From contig OZ241329.1 of NCBI GenBank assembly GCA_965199825.1, positions 1,120,001-1,184,000 on the forward strand: DNA of 64,000 nucleotides. The letters run 5' to 3'. How positions within the stretch are numbered: position 1 is the stretch's first letter; every line of letters starts with the position of its first letter. The notes under the pieces were generated by a model. It was not told the DNA's origin, did no database searches, and saw nothing but the letters and a program-made list of their open reading frames with translations. The stretch comes from Bdellovibrionales bacterium (lineage in GTDB: Bacteria > Bdellovibrionota > Bdellovibrionia > Bdellovibrionales > UBA1609). Positions 12,594 through 58,077 of this stretch are shown here, piece after piece. A program made the translations under genes and the position numbers.

Positions 12594-13427
12594 TCAATTA
12601 GCAAACACAATGCCGATCCCCCGGTGATGGGCACGATGATGACCCGAGCACAACAAAGTGAGATTTTCGATTTCATTCGTCCCACCGAGCGATATCGGTT
12701 GGATGTGATGAATATCGAGGTGCCGTTGCTGATCACATCGCTCGCCATTTTTATTGATGTGTGTGCATCGACTCTGATGAATGTGATAAACCTGGCGTTT
12801 CAACAGCGCGGTCATATTGGGCGACTTCGTCGTTGGGCACGATTTTTTTAATGGATCGTGTTTGACCAAAAATTGATCGACAAGCTCGTTGATAAGATCT
12901 TCCACCGTTGCAGCTTTTTTAAATTTTTGGCTTAACAGATCTTGGGCTCTTTTAAATGACACATATTTTTGTTCAGCCATTGAAAATGTGATTTGAACTC
13001 GCTCAGTTTCGCCCACCACACAAAATCGTGTCCGCTCGGGTAAAGCTTTTTCAGGATGAGCTTTGGCTATTTCTTTTTCTAAACTGCGCTTTGTTCCCTT
13101 CGCCTTATCAAACCAGTGTTGAGCATTCTCTTTTGTTAATATGCCGCTGATCCTGTTTGCTTTTGAAATTGAAATTTCGCCTGATGCGATTTGAGTTTTA
13201 AGTGCAGGAATCTCGATAAATTTTTTGGCAAGTTTATTAAAGATGCTCGCAAGCTCTTCAGATAAATGGAGCTGCTGGGTTGAGTATTCAAAAAGGGAAC
13301 GACATCCAAATTGATAATAGGTTTTATTGCGCCACACCTGCTCTAAAGCATTGAGCAAAAGCAATTCGGATTTGCGGTGATTTTCAGCCGCAACTACAGC
13401 GTTACGATGAACATTTAAATGATCCAT
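12594..13427 (-). CDS. HNH endonuclease with helical N-terminal domain (copy 1)
   Basis: RCTH...RC..RHLDIHHIQPISLGGTNEIENLTLLCSGHH; AGGAGA RBS before ATG 13427 (277 aa); paralogue of 50042..50848. Confidence 0.88.
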   Translation of the reverse strand: MDHLNVHRNAVVAAENHRKSELLLLNALEQVWRNKTYYQFGCRSLFEYSTQQLHLSEELASIFNKLAKKFIEIPALKTQIASGEISISKANRISGILTKENAQHWFDKAKGTKRSLEKEIAKAHPEKALPERTRFCVVGETERVQITFSMAEQKYVSFKRAQDLLSQKFKKAATVEDLINELVDQFLVKHDPLKKSCPTTKSPNMTALLKRQVYHIHQSRCTHINKNGERCDQQRHLDIHHIQPISLGGTNEIENLTLLCSGHHRAHHRGIGIVFAN

Positions 13428-13450: not shown

Positions 13451-13459
13451 AGTGTAGCA
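13451..13459 (-). promoter_or_regulatory. Putative extended -10 promoter of HNH copy 1
   Basis: Minus strand TG-C-TACACT; the equivalent TG-T-TATATT is at the same place in copy 2. Confidence 0.4.
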
Positions 13460-13650
13460 CGGGTTTTTTACCAATGGTTTTGATGTGCTCCGAGATGATT
13501 TTTTAGACTCTGTTTTTGTTGTTATTTTTGGTCACAGAGGTGCGCCTCATCGACGATTATTAAAAACACATTCGATTGATCGAATTTTTTCGATACAGAG
13601 CACTCTGGTGCATCAAAAACTGCGTCAATCTATTTCGAGAAAATCAATGT

Positions 13651-13883
13651 GGGCACGATAATTTTGAATCTAACCAAAACTCCGGAGGTGTTCGGTTTTT
13701 GTTTAGATTAAAACACTGGGCATGAGAAAATTTAATTCTCAGCGGGCACGACAATCCTCAACCCGATTTGACAAGCGGGCACGATCATTCGTGAACTGTT
13801 TTAACCAGCGGGCACGACAATCGACACCGCCAATCGCTACTCAAACGGCCCCAATCTACCTTCGTTCATCCCGGCGGGCACGA
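13651..13883 (+). repeat. Array of short (GC)GGGCACGA direct repeats with variable spacers (array 1)
   Basis: GGGCACGA at 13651, 13744, 13777, 13810, 13876 (last spacings 33, 33, 66); variant GGGCATGA at 13718. Confidence 0.85.
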
Positions 13884-28032: not shown

Positions 28033-28425
28033 GTGATGGAATCTCATTCAAATAAGATGTTGCAAGAGTTGTCGAGTCTAATGCTTAAGATCCACAAGGA
28101 TCTGATGAATCTGCAGATGATCGAATATTCGCAGGCTCATGGTCCTGTGGTCTCGCCCAATCAAAAATTAAATTTGCTGTTGAATCACTCTGATTTTCAG
28201 TGGTTTAGACCTTTAAGCACTTTGATTTCGGTGATTGATGGACTGGTTTTTCAAAAAGAGCCGTTAACCCCAAAGCAAATCAGTGAGGCCGAGGATCAGA
28301 TTCGTGCCCTATTTTTTTCAAGCGAACTCAGCGAGTTTCAAAAACATTATAAGGCCGCGCTGCTTGATCATCCAGAGACAGTCCTTCTTCATCAAAAATT
28401 AAAATCGATTATGGAACTGCAGTGA
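28033..28425 (+). CDS. Hypothetical protein
   Basis: 130-aa ORF with FQWFRPLS; first gene of a coupled operon. Confidence 0.65.
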   Translation: MMESHSNKMLQELSSLMLKIHKDLMNLQMIEYSQAHGPVVSPNQKLNLLLNHSDFQWFRPLSTLISVIDGLVFQKEPLTPKQISEAEDQIRALFFSSELSEFQKHYKAALLDHPETVLLHQKLKSIMELQ

Positions 28426-50041: not shown

Positions 50042-50848
50042 TCAATGTCGATGATGGGCACGATGATGACCCGAACACAAAATCGTCAGATTCTCGATTT
50101 CATCTGTACCACCCTGTGATTTTGGATGTTGATGATGGATATCAAGATGTCTTTGCTGCGTGCATCTTTCACCATTTTCATCGATGTGGGTACATTGGCC
50201 GTCATACTTTTGATGGAGCTTACGTTTGATGGTGATTTTCGAAGTGCTTTTGGGCGGGCACGATTTTTTGAGCGGATCCAATTTCTCAAGTAATAGCTGA
50301 GTGGCGTGATCGTGGACATCTTGAATAGAGGCGGCTCGTTTTAGTTTTTGACTTAAAAGATCTTGGGCTCTTTGAATCTCTTTAAATTTTTCTTCGCTCA
50401 CCGCATAGGTGATTTGGATCAGAATTGTTTCGCCCACCTGTTTGTATCGTGCCCGCTCGGGAATTGCTTTTTCGGGATGGGCTTTGGCGATTTGTTTTTC
50501 TAAATTTCTTTTTGTGCCCTTGGCATGGTCGCACCATTCGAGAACATTGTCTGAAGTGATGATACTTGCGATGCGGTTAATTTTAGAAACAGAAAGTTCG
50601 CCCGTTTCCATTTGGGTTTTAAGTTCAGGAACTTCAGTAAATTTCTTTGCGAGCTTATTAAAGATGCTTGCCAGTTCCTCTGACATTTTGAGCTGCTTGG
50701 TTGAATACTCAAAAAGCGAATGACAGCCAAATTTATAATAGCTTCTGTTGCGCCACACTTGCTCTAAAGCATTCAACAATTCCATTTCGGTTTTGCGATG
50801 ATTCTTTGCTGCGATCACTGCGGTTTCGTGGATTTTTTGGTGACTCAT
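50042..50848 (-). CDS. HNH endonuclease with helical N-terminal domain (copy 2)
   Basis: QCTH...RC..RHLDIHHQHPKSQGGTDEIENLTILCSGHH; AGGAGATATTT RBS shared with copy 1. Confidence 0.9.
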   Translation of the reverse strand: MSHQKIHETAVIAAKNHRKTEMELLNALEQVWRNRSYYKFGCHSLFEYSTKQLKMSEELASIFNKLAKKFTEVPELKTQMETGELSVSKINRIASIITSDNVLEWCDHAKGTKRNLEKQIAKAHPEKAIPERARYKQVGETILIQITYAVSEEKFKEIQRAQDLLSQKLKRAASIQDVHDHATQLLLEKLDPLKKSCPPKSTSKITIKRKLHQKYDGQCTHIDENGERCTQQRHLDIHHQHPKSQGGTDEIENLTILCSGHHRAHHRH

Positions 50849-51060
50849 TAAATATCTCCTATTTACTGAGTTAAATATAACATGAGTTTTTTTAAGAGCA
50901 TTTTTGATAGGACTCGACTGTTTGTGGAGATCAAGTTTTTGCTGGAGAGTTTGGCTTAAGGTGCGTTTGTGAAGTGCGTGTGTTTCAAAAAGAATCGGAT
51001 GTTTTCAAAAACAAATCCTTGGGCATTTTAAGACACCTAAATTTGCGTCAATATTTTTTT

Positions 51061-51260
51061 TGGGCGGGCACGATAATTTGTTTACCTCATCCGCGGTAGG
51101 CACGAACACTTATCTACCGCTATGGGCGGGCACGACGAATTATGAATCCATCCTGGGCGGGCACGATACTTTCGCAGCCTCATTGGGCGGGCACGACAAT
51201 CCACAACCCCCACTCGAAGCGGGAACGACAATGCACAACCCCCACTCGAAGCGGGCACGA
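51061..51260 (+). repeat. Array of seven short GGGCACGA-type direct repeats with variable spacers (array 2)
   Basis: Core at 51066, 51098 (AGGCACGA), 51128, 51159, 51189, 51221 (GGGAACGA), 51253; spacings 32, 30, 31, 30, 32, 32. Confidence 0.9.
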
Positions 51261-51361
51261 CAATCTAAAAATCCAACCCAATACTGCAACAACAGCCGGC
51301 TCTGGCGAAGGGGCCCAAATAGTCACTTTCAAAAATCATCTAGATCCTGATTGCTCTGATC

Positions 51362-52603: not shown

Positions 52604-53101
52604 GTGATCATCATTTTATTTATACTCCAAGCCTTTGCCACCGAAGTCTGTTTTTCACCGGATCAACCTTGTGACGAAAAACTGAGCGCCTTGTTGAGCG
52701 AGGCCAAAAAATCAATTTCAATCGCGATATATGATATCAATCTTGAACAGGTGATCCACCAACTGATCAAAGCCAAGCTCAGGGGCGTGAACGTTCGAGT
52801 GGTTGCCGATAAAAGACAAAGCAAGGGATCGCACTCGGCGGTATCCACTTTGGTCAAAGCCAATGTTCCGGTTCGGTTTGGTCGCCAAAGGGGAATCATG
52901 CACGACAAGTTTACAATCGTGGATGATCAAACTCTTCAGACCGGGTCGTTTAATTATACCCACCACGCAGCAACCGCAAATCAGGAAAATCAAATTTATT
53001 TAACCGACCTTGAGGTAATTAAGAAATTTGGTGAGCGATTTGAAAAGATTTGGATGGGTGCTGGCCCTACAATTCCGCGCAGAGTCTCTAGCGAAAATTA
53101 A
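52604..53101 (+). CDS. Single-HKD phospholipase D/Nuc family protein
   Basis: VCFSP, MHDKFTIVD, TGSFNYT, NQEN. Confidence 0.88.
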   Translation: MIIILFILQAFATEVCFSPDQPCDEKLSALLSEAKKSISIAIYDINLEQVIHQLIKAKLRGVNVRVVADKRQSKGSHSAVSTLVKANVPVRFGRQRGIMHDKFTIVDDQTLQTGSFNYTHHAATANQENQIYLTDLEVIKKFGERFEKIWMGAGPTIPRRVSSEN

Positions 53102-53127
53102 AATAATCGGCTAAGACCTTTAACTTC

Positions 53128-54129
53128 ATGACCGAAAAAATGTTGCTCCACCATCTTTATCAAAACCCTTTTGTTCTGGCACCTATGGCCGGAATTACCG
53201 ACTGCTCTTTTCGCTCATTCATGCGCGAGATGGGCTGTGGAATTGTGGTTACCGAGTTGGTCTCGGCCATGGGTTTAAAATACAGTTCTGAAAAAACTCG
53301 GGCGCTGATGGCTTACGAAGAATCACAACGCCCCATTGGCATTCAACTCTTTGGAGAAGATTTAGAGAGTTTTAGTTTTGCTGCTCGCGAAGCCGAAATT
53401 GCGGGTGCCGATTTTGTTGATTTGAATTTTGGTTGTCCCGTTCCCAAGGTTGTTAAAAAGGGAGCGGGTGCTGCAATGCTCAAAGACCTCAAACAACTGG
53501 CTGAAGTCTTAAGAACGGTGAAACAAGCGGTTAACATTCCGGTGACTATAAAAATCAGAACAGGTTGGGATGAGCTCTCTCGTAACGCTCATGAGATCGT
53601 CAAGATTGCTGCGAACGAAGGTATAACTTGGGTGGCCATCCATGGACGCACTCGCGCGCAAGGTTACAGTGGACAAGCGGATTGGGATTATATTCGCTAT
53701 GTGAAATCGGTAAGTCCTATTCCTGTCTTGGGCAATGGCGATATTCACTCAGGCTCTCAGGCGCGCATGCGTTTGGATTCAAGTTTGTGTGACGGGGTTT
53801 TGATTGGTCGAGGATGTTTAAAAAATCCTTGGATCTTTCGAGAGGCCAAAGGCCAAGAGGTGGAAAAAAATTATGAAGATGTTTTGTTGAAATTGATTGA
53901 GCATTTAAAGAAATTTAATTCTGAGCGGATTGTGATGTTACAGATCAAAAAATTCGCCACTTGGTATTCGGCGGGATTTCCAGAATCTTCGGCCTTTCGT
54001 TCGACCGTTTTTAAAATGAAAGAGTCTGACCAATTGATCGAGGCGGTATTTGATTACTACCGCTCTTTGAAAGGCTACTTGCAAAAGGATACAAGCCAAG
54101 AAGCCTTTTTGATGGGTGGCCATGGTTAA
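53128..54129 (+). CDS. dusB: tRNA-dihydrouridine synthase
   Basis: LAPMAGITD, LNFGCP, KIRTGW, HGRT, NGDI. Confidence 0.9.
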   Translation: MTEKMLLHHLYQNPFVLAPMAGITDCSFRSFMREMGCGIVVTELVSAMGLKYSSEKTRALMAYEESQRPIGIQLFGEDLESFSFAAREAEIAGADFVDLNFGCPVPKVVKKGAGAAMLKDLKQLAEVLRTVKQAVNIPVTIKIRTGWDELSRNAHEIVKIAANEGITWVAIHGRTRAQGYSGQADWDYIRYVKSVSPIPVLGNGDIHSGSQARMRLDSSLCDGVLIGRGCLKNPWIFREAKGQEVEKNYEDVLLKLIEHLKKFNSERIVMLQIKKFATWYSAGFPESSAFRSTVFKMKESDQLIEAVFDYYRSLKGYLQKDTSQEAFLMGGHG

Positions 54130-54130
54130 T

Positions 54131-55447
54131 TTATTTGGATTTAAAAATCTTCCAAGCCTTTAAATTATTGTAGGCCTGGGCCACCTCAAAATCATTGCGT
54201 AGCAATTTTGTTTTATCCGAAAGTGCTTCTTTTTCTTTTACAGAATCAGTACTCCACCAAGTTCCTTTGGCCCGTTTCTTTGTTTTCCCTTCGACCGCTT
54301 TGACTTCGGCATCACCTAAAAGATGGCCTTCCATATCTTGCTCGCGCCGACCTTCATCCGCCTTGAGTGTGGCTTTTTTTAATATCTCGTTATCGATCGG
54401 ATCAAACACGATATCAGGATCGATGCCGAGGGCTTGGATCGATCGACCTTTTGGAGTGTAATAGCGTGCCACTGTCAGTTTTAATCCTGATCCATCGCCG
54501 AGCTTGATTACCGATTGGACCGAGCCTTTACCAAAACTGCGTTGGCCCATAATCACCGCGCGATTGTTATCTTGGAGTGCACCGGCCAAAATTTCTGATG
54601 CACTTGCGGTGTACTCATCGATTAAAACGATAATTGGAAAGTCGGGCATGGTGCCTTGTTTCTTGGCGCGGATGATTTCTTTTTCTTTGGGATCACGCCC
54701 GATGGTGCTGACGATAATTCCCTCGTCTAAAAACATATCGCTGATCTGGACGGCTTGATCGAGTAAACCCCCTGGGTTTTTTCGCACATCTAGAATAAGT
54801 CCATTTATCTTTTGATGTTTTTTGGTGTGATCTTTAAAAATTTTGTCGAGCTCACCGGCTGATGTTTCAATAAAACTTGTGAGTTTGACATAGGCATAAC
54901 CATCATCAAGATCGGTGTACTTGGCAGATTTCAATTTGACAGTGGCGCGCTCAAGAGTAAATGCTTTTGGTTTATCAAAACCTTCGCGGTAAATTCCGAG
55001 CATCACTTGGCCTTTTTTGTTTTCGCGCATTTTGAGTGCGGCGTCGGCAAGGCTTAATCCTTTAGTGGACTCATTGTTGATTTCTACAATTTTGTCTCCG
55101 GGCTGGATGCCGGCCTTAAATGCGGGAGTGTCTTCAATAGGTGAGATGACGGTGAGGACTCCATCTTGGATGGTGATCTCAACCCCAAAACCACCAAACT
55201 CGCCCGAGGTTTCGGATTTAAATTCACTGAACTTTTCTGATTCCATAAAGCTCGAGTGGGGATCTAATTCGCGGAGCATTCCTTTGATCCCGCCATAGAT
55301 TAATTTTTTGGTGTCGACCTCTTCAACGTAATATTGCTGAATCAGATTCAACACTTTGGCAAAAAGCTGAAGGTCTTGGTAGCGTTCGGCAGCGAAGGCT
55401 GTGCTAAAGCAAACAGCGCCAATCATCAGCCAATATTTCATTTTCAT
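54131..55447 (-). CDS. S41 carboxyl-terminal protease (CtpA-like)
   Basis: LDPHS, PDZ, NPGGLL, TASASEI, FGKGSVQ; start ATG 55447. Confidence 0.93.
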   Translation of the reverse strand: MKMKYWLMIGAVCFSTAFAAERYQDLQLFAKVLNLIQQYYVEEVDTKKLIYGGIKGMLRELDPHSSFMESEKFSEFKSETSGEFGGFGVEITIQDGVLTVISPIEDTPAFKAGIQPGDKIVEINNESTKGLSLADAALKMRENKKGQVMLGIYREGFDKPKAFTLERATVKLKSAKYTDLDDGYAYVKLTSFIETSAGELDKIFKDHTKKHQKINGLILDVRKNPGGLLDQAVQISDMFLDEGIIVSTIGRDPKEKEIIRAKKQGTMPDFPIIVLIDEYTASASEILAGALQDNNRAVIMGQRSFGKGSVQSVIKLGDGSGLKLTVARYYTPKGRSIQALGIDPDIVFDPIDNEILKKATLKADEGRREQDMEGHLLGDAEVKAVEGKTKKRAKGTWWSTDSVKEKEALSDKTKLLRNDFEVAQAYNNLKAWKIFKSK

Positions 55448-55457
55448 TTTAGCTCCC

Positions 55458-56525
55458 TCAAAAGTTGTTGGCCTGATTCTCCGGTTTGTTTTTGATCCAA
55501 GGAAGCGGATCAATTGCGTCAGAAAAATGCCGAATTTCGAAATAGACTCCATTGATTTTATGAAAGGGTGAAAAGCTGGTAAACCCCAAAACTTCACCTT
55601 CGTTCACATCATCGTTCAATTTTAACCGTAGATTACTTAAAGTCCCGTAGACCGTGTGATAATGATCGCCATGATCGACGATAACGACAAGACCATTTCC
55701 GGGGAGGGGTCCGCTAAAAACCACTTTGCCGCGATGAACCGAGCGTACTGCAGCACCTTGCGAGCTCTCTAAAAATAAACCCTTATGAGACAACTTGTAA
55801 TGAAGCTCTGGGTTTTCGATAAAGCCATATTCCTGTCGGACTGGACCTTCTGTTGGCGTGACTAAAAGTCCTTTGCGCTCAAAAAATGCTGTTTCATAAA
55901 CCACGTCTGAATCTTTGCGCAGATCTTTAATCTGCATGAGCGCCTGCTGCTGATGGGTCTGAAGTTTTTCGAGCAATGCCGATTTTGATTTTTGCTCAAA
56001 CTCGAGCAAACCTTCTTGCCCCTTTAAATCGATCTGAATTTTGGCAAGCCGTTCGACTTTGGTTTTCAACATCTCGCGATGTTCACGAAGAGTTGTTAAG
56101 TTGAGCTGAAAGTCTTTGATCAATTCGAGATCGCGCTCGGAAACCAATTTTAAAAATTTAGTATGACGAAAGAGATCATTCGCATTGAATGACGAAAATA
56201 AAAGTCTCAAGGTGGATTGAAAATTCATGCGGTACATCGCACTCAATCTGCGCGACAGATGAAGACGTTGCGAATCCATTTTGCTTTCAAGAGTTCCAAT
56301 CATTTTTGCAAGACCGCGAGCATCGTTTTTTGCCAGCAGCATCTTGTCGGTCAGAGCTCCCCGTTTTTGGCTCATCGATTTCATTTTTTTATTGATGGAA
56401 TAAAGAGTACCTAAGACTTCGCGATTTTTTATTTCGTCTTGCGACAGCCGAGTTTTTATTTCCTCAAAGGACGGCTTGACACTGACGGTTGCGGCAACGG
56501 CCACACTCAGAAAAAGTCGGATCAA
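55458..56525 (-). CDS. envC: EnvC-like murein hydrolase activator (coiled coil plus degenerate M23)
   Basis: Long coiled coil, IVDHGDHYHTVYG, YFEIR; downstream of ftsX; probable TTG start 56525. Confidence 0.85.
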   Translation of the reverse strand: MIRLFLSVAVAATVSVKPSFEEIKTRLSQDEIKNREVLGTLYSINKKMKSMSQKRGALTDKMLLAKNDARGLAKMIGTLESKMDSQRLHLSRRLSAMYRMNFQSTLRLLFSSFNANDLFRHTKFLKLVSERDLELIKDFQLNLTTLREHREMLKTKVERLAKIQIDLKGQEGLLEFEQKSKSALLEKLQTHQQQALMQIKDLRKDSDVVYETAFFERKGLLVTPTEGPVRQEYGFIENPELHYKLSHKGLFLESSQGAAVRSVHRGKVVFSGPLPGNGLVVIVDHGDHYHTVYGTLSNLRLKLNDDVNEGEVLGFTSFSPFHKINGVYFEIRHFSDAIDPLPWIKNKPENQANNF

Positions 56526-57415
56526 GATGTCGACCTTTCTGCAGCAGCCCATCCTGAGGCTTGGGTCTGGACGCAGAAGTAAGCCGAGAGCCAACCAAAA
56601 AATCCACCAAGACCTATAAATCCCATGCTTTGAAAAAGACTTAAAAATTGAAGATTCAATTTCCAAAGAGCAATGCTGTCTTCAAAAAATTGGAGTTGCC
56701 AATGGTAAAACCCATAACAAAAAAGAATGGCAAAGAGAGATGCAGCACTTCCGATAAATGCACCTTCAGCCAAAAAAGGAGCTTTAATCATTCGTGAGGT
56801 TGCACCGACCAATTCTAAAATTTCGATTTCGTCGCGCCGTTGTGAAATTGCCGAACGGATAGAGAAGCTCACAATAAATAAACTCGCGACCAATAACAGC
56901 GCCATCAAAAAATTAGAGGCACGAGCAAAGGTTTTGATAAAAGTAAGATAATTTTCGATCCAGCCTTGACCATAGGAGACTTCGTCGACTCCGTCCATTT
57001 GGGTCAGTGCCGAAGTTAGGGATTGAACACTCTGGTTGGGTTTAAGCTTAGTCTCAAAACTTGCGGGCAATGGATTTCCAAAATCGGCATCCGACAAAAG
57101 CCCTGCTGAATAAAGGCCCATTTCAATCTTAAATTTTTTAGCCGCCTCTGATTTTTCGACAAAATTGATGCTCTCAAACTGATTTGAGCTTTCTAATTTT
57201 TGACGAATCTTTTTTAAAGCTTCGGGCGAGATCATGTCGCGAAGATAAACCGTGTATTGCACCGACTCGCCCCAAACCTCAAAAACATGCTGCAAGTTTT
57301 TTTGCACACAAAAAAAACTGGCAATCACAAAGAATGTGGCGGTGAGTACAAAAAGGGTTGTGGTTTGTGTTGTGGGATGATGACGAAAACTGCGTTTGAT
57401 GTTTTGCAAAATCAT
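56522..57415 (-). CDS. ftsX: Cell division permease FtsX
   Basis: NPLPASF, RRDEIEILELVGAT, PFLAEG. Confidence 0.92.
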   Translation of the reverse strand: MILQNIKRSFRHHPTTQTTTLFVLTATFFVIASFFCVQKNLQHVFEVWGESVQYTVYLRDMISPEALKKIRQKLESSNQFESINFVEKSEAAKKFKIEMGLYSAGLLSDADFGNPLPASFETKLKPNQSVQSLTSALTQMDGVDEVSYGQGWIENYLTFIKTFARASNFLMALLLVASLFIVSFSIRSAISQRRDEIEILELVGATSRMIKAPFLAEGAFIGSAASLFAILFCYGFYHWQLQFFEDSIALWKLNLQFLSLFQSMGFIGLGGFFGWLSAYFCVQTQASGWAAAERSTS

Positions 57416-58077
57416 CGTCGTTGACCTGCTTCGATGTTGCCACTGCGTATCTCAACCACGCGGCGGTTATAGGATTTTACGAGAGAATCATCGTGAGTTG
57501 CGATAAACACGGTTGTGCCTTGAGCATTGACCCGATCAAACAAGCCCATGATTTCTCGTGAAAGATCTCGGTCTAAATTTCCGGTGGGCTCATCCGCGAT
57601 CAGCACGCCCGGCTGATGAATCAGAGCTCGAGCAATGGCCACACGCTGTTGCTCTCCTCCACTCAAATGCTCAGGGTAGACATCATGTTTAAATGAAAGT
57701 GCAACTTGATCTAAAATTTCATGCACTCTTTTTTGGATCATCTGGGGGCGGTCGCCCCGAATTACAAGTGGAAGCGCCACATTTTCAAAAACGGTGCGTG
57801 TTTTTAATAAACGAAAATCTTGATAGACCACACCGATGCGGCGACGAAGATAAGGTATTTTATTTTTTGATATTTGGTTGAGATCAAAACCTGCAACGTT
57901 CACTTGACCCGAAGTTGCCTTATCGTATCCAGAAAGAAGGCGAAACAGAGTGGTTTTTCCAGCCCCGCTGGGACCGGTAAGAAAAACGAATTCACCTTTA
58001 CCTATTTCGAGATTTATATCTGAGAGAGCCTGCACAGGGCCGGGATAGCTTTTGTAGGTGTGAGAAAAAGAGATCAT
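57412..58077 (-). CDS. ftsE: Cell division ATPase FtsE
   Basis: GPSGAGKTT, VYQDFRLL, LSGGEQQR. Confidence 0.95.
   Translation of the reverse strand: MISFSHTYKSYPGPVQALSDINLEIGKGEFVFLTGPSGAGKTTLFRLLSGYDKATSGQVNVAGFDLNQISKNKIPYLRRRIGVVYQDFRLLKTRTVFENVALPLVIRGDRPQMIQKRVHEILDQVALSFKHDVYPEHLSGGEQQRVAIARALIHQPGVLIADEPTGNLDRDLSREIMGLFDRVNAQGTTVFIATHDDSLVKSYNRRVVEIRSGNIEAGQRR

Follow-up and report, generated by a model that had tools for sequence, protein, structure and literature searches.

The locus at positions 50042..51265 of the window, i.e. the 64,000-nucleotide stretch of a Bdellovibrionales genome analysed here, raises the question of why a periodic array of short repeats stands next to a stand-alone HNH nuclease gene. 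Two answers were offered in a preliminary description made from the sequence, namely (a) a minimal guide-RNA array processed into units of about 31 nt that program the HNH protein, or (b) phased protein-binding sites belonging to a selfish mobile element. As developed below, a selfish cassette whose nuclease reads the repeat as DNA is probably the better answer.

The nuclease gene and its array

The nuclease gene occupies 50042..50848 on the minus strand; its 268-aa product exceeds the cut-off of Pfam HNH, and the ORF is preceded by the putative ribosome-binding site AGGAGA (50855..50860, minus strand). Upstream, on the plus strand, seven candidate cognate sites with the consensus AGYGGGCACGAYA form a degenerate minisatellite of 30-32 bp units at 51061..51262 (motif starts 51066, 51098, 51128, 51159, 51189, 51221 and 51253); re-measurement returned the spacings first given (32, 30, 31, 30, 32 and 32 bp) as well as the four repeats of the form TGGGCGGGCACGA. 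Five of the seven copies are exact GGGCACGA, those at 51098 and 51221 reading AGGCACGA and GGGAACGA, respectively. The intervening sequences had been said mostly to differ apart from the last two; the latter are indeed near-duplicates, but all six spacers are mutually similar rather than independent, with spacer-spacer alignment scores of 2.15-2.77 against -0.3 for shuffled sequences, a level reached in 0/2000 shuffles whether or not the duplicated spacer is included. Besides, spacer 1 is common to paralogue 8 (22/23). Of note, a 151-base contig from run X4 (depth 2) carries 12 other letters in place of 51080-51122 and one unit fewer (window 51059-51240), a single weak record that suggests an array polymorphism in a related strain.

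Exact GGGCACGA occurs 16 times in the window against 1.5 expected, 16 being reached in 0/100 shuffles, and five of these copies lie inside two HNH genes (50056, 50256 and 50447; 12629 and 12835). The second gene, at 12594..13427 (minus strand, 62% identical), repeats the layout of the first, as previously noticed, with five upstream motif copies at 13651..13883 (plus strand; spacings of 93, 33, 33 and 66 bp). A single copy indeed lies outside both loci in the window, at 28302; the genome total is 522. No cas-like gene was recognised among the window ORFs, in line with the first reading; the neighbours at window 52604-58077 are, from their translations, what we take to be phospholipase D-like, dusB-like and S41 peptidase genes followed by envC-ftsX-ftsE.

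Spread of the site and of the gene

The genome holding the window measures 2.84 Mb (100% complete), and its protein neighbours are Bdellovibrionota. HNH paralogues were found by tblastn at 28 loci, i.e. 27 with a 5' end and one fragment, and defects among the 27 amount to one internal stop, one internal deletion and one copy deprived of the HNH part. An exact site is present upstream on the same strand in 27/27 copies with a 5' end, and inside the gene in 28/28. Regarding the restriction of GGGCACGA to HNH genes, the word is common genome-wide, yet 13-fold denser in their vicinity, at 1.45 per kb for the 235 copies within 2.5 kb of HNH loci against 0.107 per kb for the other 287, many of which belong to the solo arrays described below; once loci and arrays are masked, 79 copies are left for 49 expected. 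The word GCGGGCACGA was counted 300 times in this genome against 0-16 times in 40 relatives.

Same-strand neighbour distances of up to 45 bp (n=260) fall at 16-20 bp in 221 cases and at 30-33 bp in 16, so that the unit of about 31 bp is peculiar to the locus 50042-51265. Helical phasing of the sites was rejected on this count, and what survives of answer (b) is the attribution of the sites to a selfish element. Many genomic GGGCACGA arrays are perfect tandem repeats, one 18-bp unit being common to arrays at about 258, 1203 and 1618 kb. Ten arrays are solo and intergenic, mostly with 16-20 bp units and with up to 39 copies (G000:C1 246215-246848, 484400-484715, 751483-751749, 808687-809763, 953715-953895, 1355531-1355991, 1538411-1538766, 1575773-1576471, 1618395-1618838 and 2055089-2055384).

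Sites held within the coding sequence

Three candidate cognate sites lie within the gene at 50042..50848: one at 50056..50063 (plus strand) in the last codons, which encode HHRAHH and make the right-hand homology border of the cassette, one at 50256..50263 (plus strand) in the linker between the ribbon-helix-helix (RHH) and HNH parts, over the codons for SCP, and one on the opposite strand at 50447..50454 (minus strand), over those for ERAR. Among paralogues, the in-gene sites lie at three places, namely +394, on one strand, +585 or +605, on either strand and over the codons for SCP or AGT, and +785-797, the linker site of the other paralogues being 20 bp further, on the opposite strand, in the codons for AGT. 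An inversion of the linker between subfamilies was ruled out, both orientations standing side by side in copies 15 and 18.

Codon choice was counted over the copies having the peptide word, copies 9, 12 and 15 left out: within HHRAH, CGT is found in 25/25 (background 0.19) and GCC in 24/25 (background 0.26); ERAR is written GAG CGG GCA CGA in 17/19 copies having it; and the linker uses TCG TGC in 14/14 or GGC ACG in 9/10, the background of key codons being 0.11-0.26 but reaching 0.63 for TGC and 0.46 for GGC. With synonymous positions fixed in three reading contexts and on both strands, the site is, as judged from codon usage, under selection at the DNA level; that neither strand nor frame matters agrees with a binding site in double-stranded DNA. 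Gene conversion among paralogues may partly account for this fixation.

Predicted folds and catalytic residues

The 268 residues, modelled from 95 sequences (pLDDT 95.8), are occupied by three fold matches, i.e. a ParB/KorB-like DNA-binding domain (residues ~13-127), an RHH (~143-195) and a zinc-binding HNH domain (~200-268). In VIA-align, residues 13-127, the N-terminal domain for which a structure had been called for, match the DNA-binding domains of KorB, ParB and Spo0J (8qa8, 6s6h, 1r71 and 1vz0, four chains among the top eight matches) with Z of 6.3-7.0 and rmsd of 2.8-3.6 over 91-98 residues, and residues 143-195 match the RHH proteins TraM, MazE6 and NikR with Z of 4.6-5.2, such middling scores (Z <8) for helical domains possibly reflecting common arrangements. 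Residues 200-268 align to HNH domains, the best being that of IscB (Z 7.6, rmsd 1.6, 57 residues). While Foldseek returned no match to the model at E <= 0.001, weak sequence matches to ParG, CopG and HTH_ParB agree with the fold assignment. Within the families listed by the fold search, no Nop or RuvC protein was met except via the HNH part; against the IscB profile NF040563, the protein scores 33.5 bits for a cut-off of 175, over residues 205-267 only. The protein is predicted, from this model, to be a ParB/KorB-type DNA-binding domain followed by an RHH and an intact HNH. Residues C219, H239, N253, H262 and H266 are invariant in the 95 sequences, and H238, C229, C258 and H261 nearly so; we presume their catalytic and zinc-binding roles by analogy with colicin HNH domains.

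A leader of fixed length

Between array and gene, on the minus strand, lies a leader bounded on the left by the -35-like TTGACG (51046..51051) and, 168 bp away, on the right by RTGnTAnnnT (ATGTTATATT, 50874..50883), which is extended -10-like; its interior (50884..51045) bears phased T- and A-tracts and diverges fast at fixed length. The paralogue has its own leader at 13451..13628 (minus strand), with TTGACG (13623-13628) 168 bp from GTGCTACACT (13451-13460). The distance from TTGAC to RTGnTA is 167-170 bp in 25/27 copies of the genome, where RTGnTA stands about 30 bp upstream of the start codon. Copies 9 and 10, two divergent paralogues (G000:C1 799110 and 805042; 46-49%; GTG starts), are devoid of the 167-170 bp leader and have a site at about -140.

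Beyond this genome, the TTGAC/RTGnTA pair was sought at 101 other loci, i.e. those with enough upstream DNA and many of them from the same genomes, and was found at 165-188 bp in 76 (block shuffles: mean 3.3, max 9) and at 165-170 bp in 58 (mean 0.8, max 4). Loci fetched later and held out gave 17/43, made up of 7/20 GC-rich loci (shuffle mean 0.08) and 10/23 others (0.33), and the pair is therefore common, not universal. The interior shows 45% mean identity among paralogues; for copy 25 compared with the three sisters closest to it, the interior scores 0.64-0.67 with coding sequences 90-92% identical and lengths that differ by one base at most. A/T content oscillates in phase with a period of ~10-12 bp, with powers of 0.43 and 0.29 against null maxima of 0.12 and 0.06, values inflated by kinship. 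That the length and not the sequence of the leader is kept across two bacterial phyla, in genomes of 35% to 73% GC, points to a mechanism based on DNA geometry.

As regards RNA, the leader matched no Rfam family, the consensus energy of 22 paralogous leaders was 0 on both strands with covariation included, single leaders gave z mostly near 0, and GC-rich leader sets gave weak folds only (consensus -2 to -6 kcal/mol; z averaging -1.5 and -1.3 against a crude shuffle). No solo leader was found in the genome, the leader being confined to HNH loci, and a collapsed 19-bp form showed no excess there. A small ORF was discarded as well, since lengths differ by single bases and a frame is open in 8/25 only.

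The two anchors resemble the sigma70 -35 and extended -10 elements. TAnnnT follows TTGAC by 16-18 bp in 0/101 leaders, and the pair as a whole is therefore not an ordinary promoter; a -35 match precedes the leader's TA hexamer in 3/101. The last T of this hexamer is present in 24/25 leaders here, in 27/49 other AT-rich and in 0/27 GC-rich leaders, so that RTGnTA can function as an extended -10 promoter in the Bdellovibrionales genome. Compared with normal sigma70 spacing, the leader is in excess by about 148 bp in the 167 class and, in the 175 and 186 classes, by 156 or 167 bp. Three readings fit alike, namely a promoter that is looped or wrapped, an element end measured by a protein, or two unrelated sites at fixed distance. 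One tentative version, which we regard as rather doubtful, is a split sigma70 promoter, usable only when the intervening stretch is looped, wrapped or, as one unit, cut out, with the cassette protein as the switch; the ParB-fold/RHH protein would then sit on the sites within the gene and on those immediately before the -35. Were this true, the cassette would represent a widespread kind of protein-guided mobile nuclease with a clade-specific HTH-site code and a length-coded DNA switch, the generation of bacterial minisatellites being a side effect.

Evidence for mobility

Homology between close copies stops just past the HHRAHH site on one side and just beyond the first upstream site on the other; it ends at the last codons, the C-terminal tails differing among paralogues. 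In two runs, contig depth rises over about 50044-51080, with loose ends at 50044-50052. Copies 3 and 14 each interrupt a gene pair whose members are direct neighbours in 11/15 and 12/19 of the relatives' loci, respectively, all in other genera; from the translations, we take copy 3 to lie between ddl and ftsQ and copy 14 between deoC and deoA. The flanks of four copies that are 90-95% identical at the nucleotide level are unrelated, and synonymous codon changes among these copies are 2-3x the non-synonymous ones. Direct copies of the site are found at both cassette borders at variable distance, TTGAC being 11 to 175 bp from the first exact site, and the site is therefore no attachment point of fixed position. 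Neither a target-site duplication at the cassette borders nor a convincing excision joint in the contigs was seen, unplaced joints in the latter fitting paralogues.

Homologues and their own sites

The HNH family comprises 935 clusters at 50% identity (E <= 1e-30), with matches in 46/101 of the Bdellovibrionota genomes searched and 0 to 36 matches per relative, often in multiple copies. The preliminary description had suggested looking for motifs in the flanks of homologues: GGGCACGA is missing from 43/43 loci at <=40% identity, but many of the homologues carry sites of their own. In G216, the proteins share the helix ASIxNKxAKK, and GGGCACGA is found in the linker of 5/5 copies whose linker is assembled, together with a 7-mer version 43 bp before TTGAC in 2/2, in opposite orientation; this genome has no GGGCACGA array and no genome-wide enrichment (17 vs 15 for the control). 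In GC-rich homologue loci, whose hosts, where named, are Kofleriaceae, Haliangiales and 'Deltaproteobacteria', a parS-like palindrome GYCCCA(CG/GC)TGGGRC lies in the gene or flanks in 29/31 and is enriched genome-wide in 2/5 genomes counted. Elsewhere, CAGTTCTTAAGAACTG is present at both ends in G015, TCTTCCCGGGAAGA at -222 and +587 of L249, and CTGTCCCGGGACAG at -226, +665 and +907 of L255, in both latter cases matching the site positions of the Bdellovibrionales genome; L249, L255 and L262 bear at these positions CCCGGG-centred palindromes. In several clades (G036, G220), no clear candidate site was seen. The type of site goes with the type of helix; kin share both, and the helix-site match is therefore not a proof.

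At 16/70 homologue loci, a word of at least 9 bases is shared between both ends (control mean 5.7, max 11), such words being direct in 16/70 and inverted in 12/70. As side observations, some 9-mer occurs at least three times upstream of 13/76 homologue loci, and L020, L087, L010 and L155 have upstream tandem arrays of other words (17-bp units; repeated GTCCCAGCTGGGAC; 14- and 26-bp units), the 17-bp units stemming from a repeat that flanks L020 and that we take to be dRS3-like. In viral contigs, three homologue queries returned one marginal match of 21 residues, then none; 46 viral stretches with three motif copies were mostly coding-type repeats (37 stretches with spacings divisible by 3), with one weak HMM match.

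A probable selfish cassette and its alternatives

Starting from computed properties, i.e. the copy number, the borders, DNA-level selection on the site, the three folds, the catalytic residues, the empty sites of relatives and the clade-specific sites, we infer that the protein probably binds its site via the ParB-type domain, dimerises via the RHH, nicks nearby DNA and represses its own gene, and that repair of the nick copies the cassette and expands the units. The cassette would be a selfish element of ~1.0 kb, having spread over 28 chromosomal places and consisting, in order, of site(s), AT-rich stretch, TTGAC, fixed-length leader, RTGnTA and the gene, which closes with a site. Its protein would recognise GGGCACGA (AGYGGGCACGAYA) in double-stranded DNA through its own helix-turn-helix domain of the ParB type, the HNH nicking or cutting near the bound sites. 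Repair of such site-directed nicks, with the site as micro-homology, would copy the cassette and would also expand site-containing units into minisatellites, namely the array of the window and the ten solo arrays; the array would then keep no record of foreign DNA, but be a by-product or serve as a titration sink. Sites both upstream of and inside the gene would let the protein repress its own expression, and repression at a distance is described for KorB (PMC11790492). Several observations count against this explanation: 287 of 522 copies of GGGCACGA are situated >2.5 kb from any HNH locus, one array stands upstream of a Y1 transposase gene, TTGAC and the first exact site are at variable distance, G216 has neither arrays nor an excess of the word, and some clades show no clear site.

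An unlikely alternative is a domesticated, self-repressing nuclease serving in the DNA-damage response or the degradation of prey DNA, with the sites as operators and with copies arising by duplication and gene conversion. Purifying selection, the mostly intact state of the copies and the quasi-absence of homologues from the viral contigs (three queries, one marginal match) speak for it, as does the reported status of mycobacterial 13E12 HNH genes as LexA targets (PMC4181829). Against it, the copies stand singly at unrelated places, some between genes that are adjacent in relatives, their number varies widely among relatives, and homology stops at the last codons with differing C-terminal tails.

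Another factor could instead bind or spread the word, be it a nucleoid or silencing protein of the host or the Y1/RAYT-like transposases, the cassettes merely collecting it or inserting nearby, which we consider quite improbable. In its favour are the ten solo arrays far from HNH genes, one array standing upstream of a Y1 transposase gene, the 17 Y1/RAYT-like transposase matches (PF01797) of the genome (e.g. G000:C1 247156, 423196 and 1598553), none of them an HNH locus, the presence of a second over-represented word, WACCWTCGTTCRC, of which 7/61 exact copies lie <=40 bp from GGGCACGA (random 0.9%), and the dRS3-like repeat beside L020. However, the Y1 genes have a different word, ATGACAYTGCCC, near 12/17 of them, for GGGCACGA near 1/17; the site is kept among the codons of the HNH gene and accompanies the protein clade into G216; and the HNH protein itself has a ParB-type DNA-binding fold.

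Finally, the guide array of answer (a) is highly improbable, and the array beside the HNH gene is very probably something else, despite a short conserved repeat, variable sequence in between, an HNH whose closest fold is that of IscB and the X4 contig, whose different and shorter gene-proximal array could result from turnover at the leader end: unit length is not kept among paralogues, perfect tandem arrays are many, the motif also occurs within the gene, on either strand, and two DNA-binding folds plus the HNH take up the protein. Moreover, the spacers, homologous to each other and to paralogue 8, matched no phage or plasmid significantly (best E 3-10) and, in their own genome, gave significant matches only to self, sister spacer and paralogue 8, and neither strand of the array RNA folds better than shuffles (z +0.8 and +1.0).

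Comparison with known systems

The nearest known kin of the cassette are the DUF222/13E12-HNH genes, to which it adds an asymmetric site amplified into arrays and a fixed-length leader. Like REP13E12 or DUF222-HNH genes of Mycobacterium tuberculosis and others, the present ones are stand-alone, multi-copy, helical in their N-terminal part and HNH in their C-terminal part; the cassette protein differs in being shorter with a clear RHH, and the cassette in its asymmetric site in tandem arrays and its leader. DUF222 (PF02720) gave no match above cut-off at these HNH loci and matched 2/95 homologues (best E 0.009), and one Atlas neighbour cluster of the protein has DUF222 on 14% of its members. 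In the literature, 13E12/DUF222-HNH genes appear as gene-conversion hotspots with no defined function (PMC13061034) and 13E12 genes are listed as repeats (PMC10589994).

With ParB-parS, KorB-OB and Noc-NBS, the cassette protein shares, at middling scores, the DNA-binding domain fold, but it has no room for the N-terminal CTPase domain of ParB and is fused to RHH and HNH. In its presumed working, the cassette amounts to a ParB and its site joined to a nuclease. The palindromes of the homologues resemble parS and NBS. GGGCACGA differs from parS in sequence and is dispersed rather than clustered at the origin; parS-like sites of the genome were seen at G000:C1 964356 and 964919, near the GC-skew minimum at 972316, likely the origin region.

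RAYT-REP/REPIN systems consist of a mobile-type nuclease gene flanked by genome-specific short repeats, which spread alone and enter reading frames. The cassette resembles them in the genome-specific short repeats around a nuclease gene, and departs from them in having HNH instead of HUH-Y1 and a short non-hairpin word in direct arrays, with the Y1 genes having another repeat. CRISPR arrays have repeats >20 nt and unique, uniform spacers that match mobile DNA, whereas the core is here 8-13 nt and the spacers are mutually similar and matchless. IscB-omegaRNA or HEARO share with the cassette the HNH similarity and a length-constrained non-coding stretch upstream, but this stretch has here neither Rfam match nor conserved fold. 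TIGR-TasH likewise places an HNH gene beside a short-repeat array with variable parts; as described in PMC12045711, TIGR combines edge repeats that alternate with loop repeats, guides of 36 nt, a Nop domain and an HNH at the N-terminus. The cassette differs from that description by its single repeat type, variable unit, C-terminal HNH and DNA-binding folds. In the main text of open-access papers, nothing was found on the HNH family in Bdellovibrionota, its site, its ParB fold or a fixed-length leader.

The family is a large one, and for the 13E12 repeats, its closest relatives with a name, no function has been defined. With 27 diverged paralogues having one common site, kept even in coding sequence, and G216 as a second genome that shares helix and site, a clean test system is at hand. 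As predicted from sequence and model, the 268 aa would make up a small nickase or nuclease that acts at specific sequences and has natural variants of differing specificity, and the cassette suggests a cause for a bacterial minisatellite family.

Other repeats of the genome

Among 9-11-mers, none exceeds expectation in this genome as much as WACCWTCGTTCRC (TACCTTCGTTC / TACCATCGTTC), which has 53 copies against 0.75 expected after masking and occurs in coding and non-coding DNA on both strands (window 1360, 13857, 53613 and 60677); in G040, several of its 16 copies lie just before apparent Y1 transposase genes. It may be a binding site or an uptake-like word. A MITE-like module of ~90-120 bp, bounded by the inverted repeats AAATYTCCGGMGGTGT ... 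ACACCYCCGGAGATTT, is interleaved with many of the arrays (window 13676-13695; G000:C1 1565960-1566066, 246300-246760 and 1249040). Besides, copies 5 and 7 are followed by degenerate repeats derived from the gene's own 3' end (G000:C1 534305-534540 and 575425-575644).
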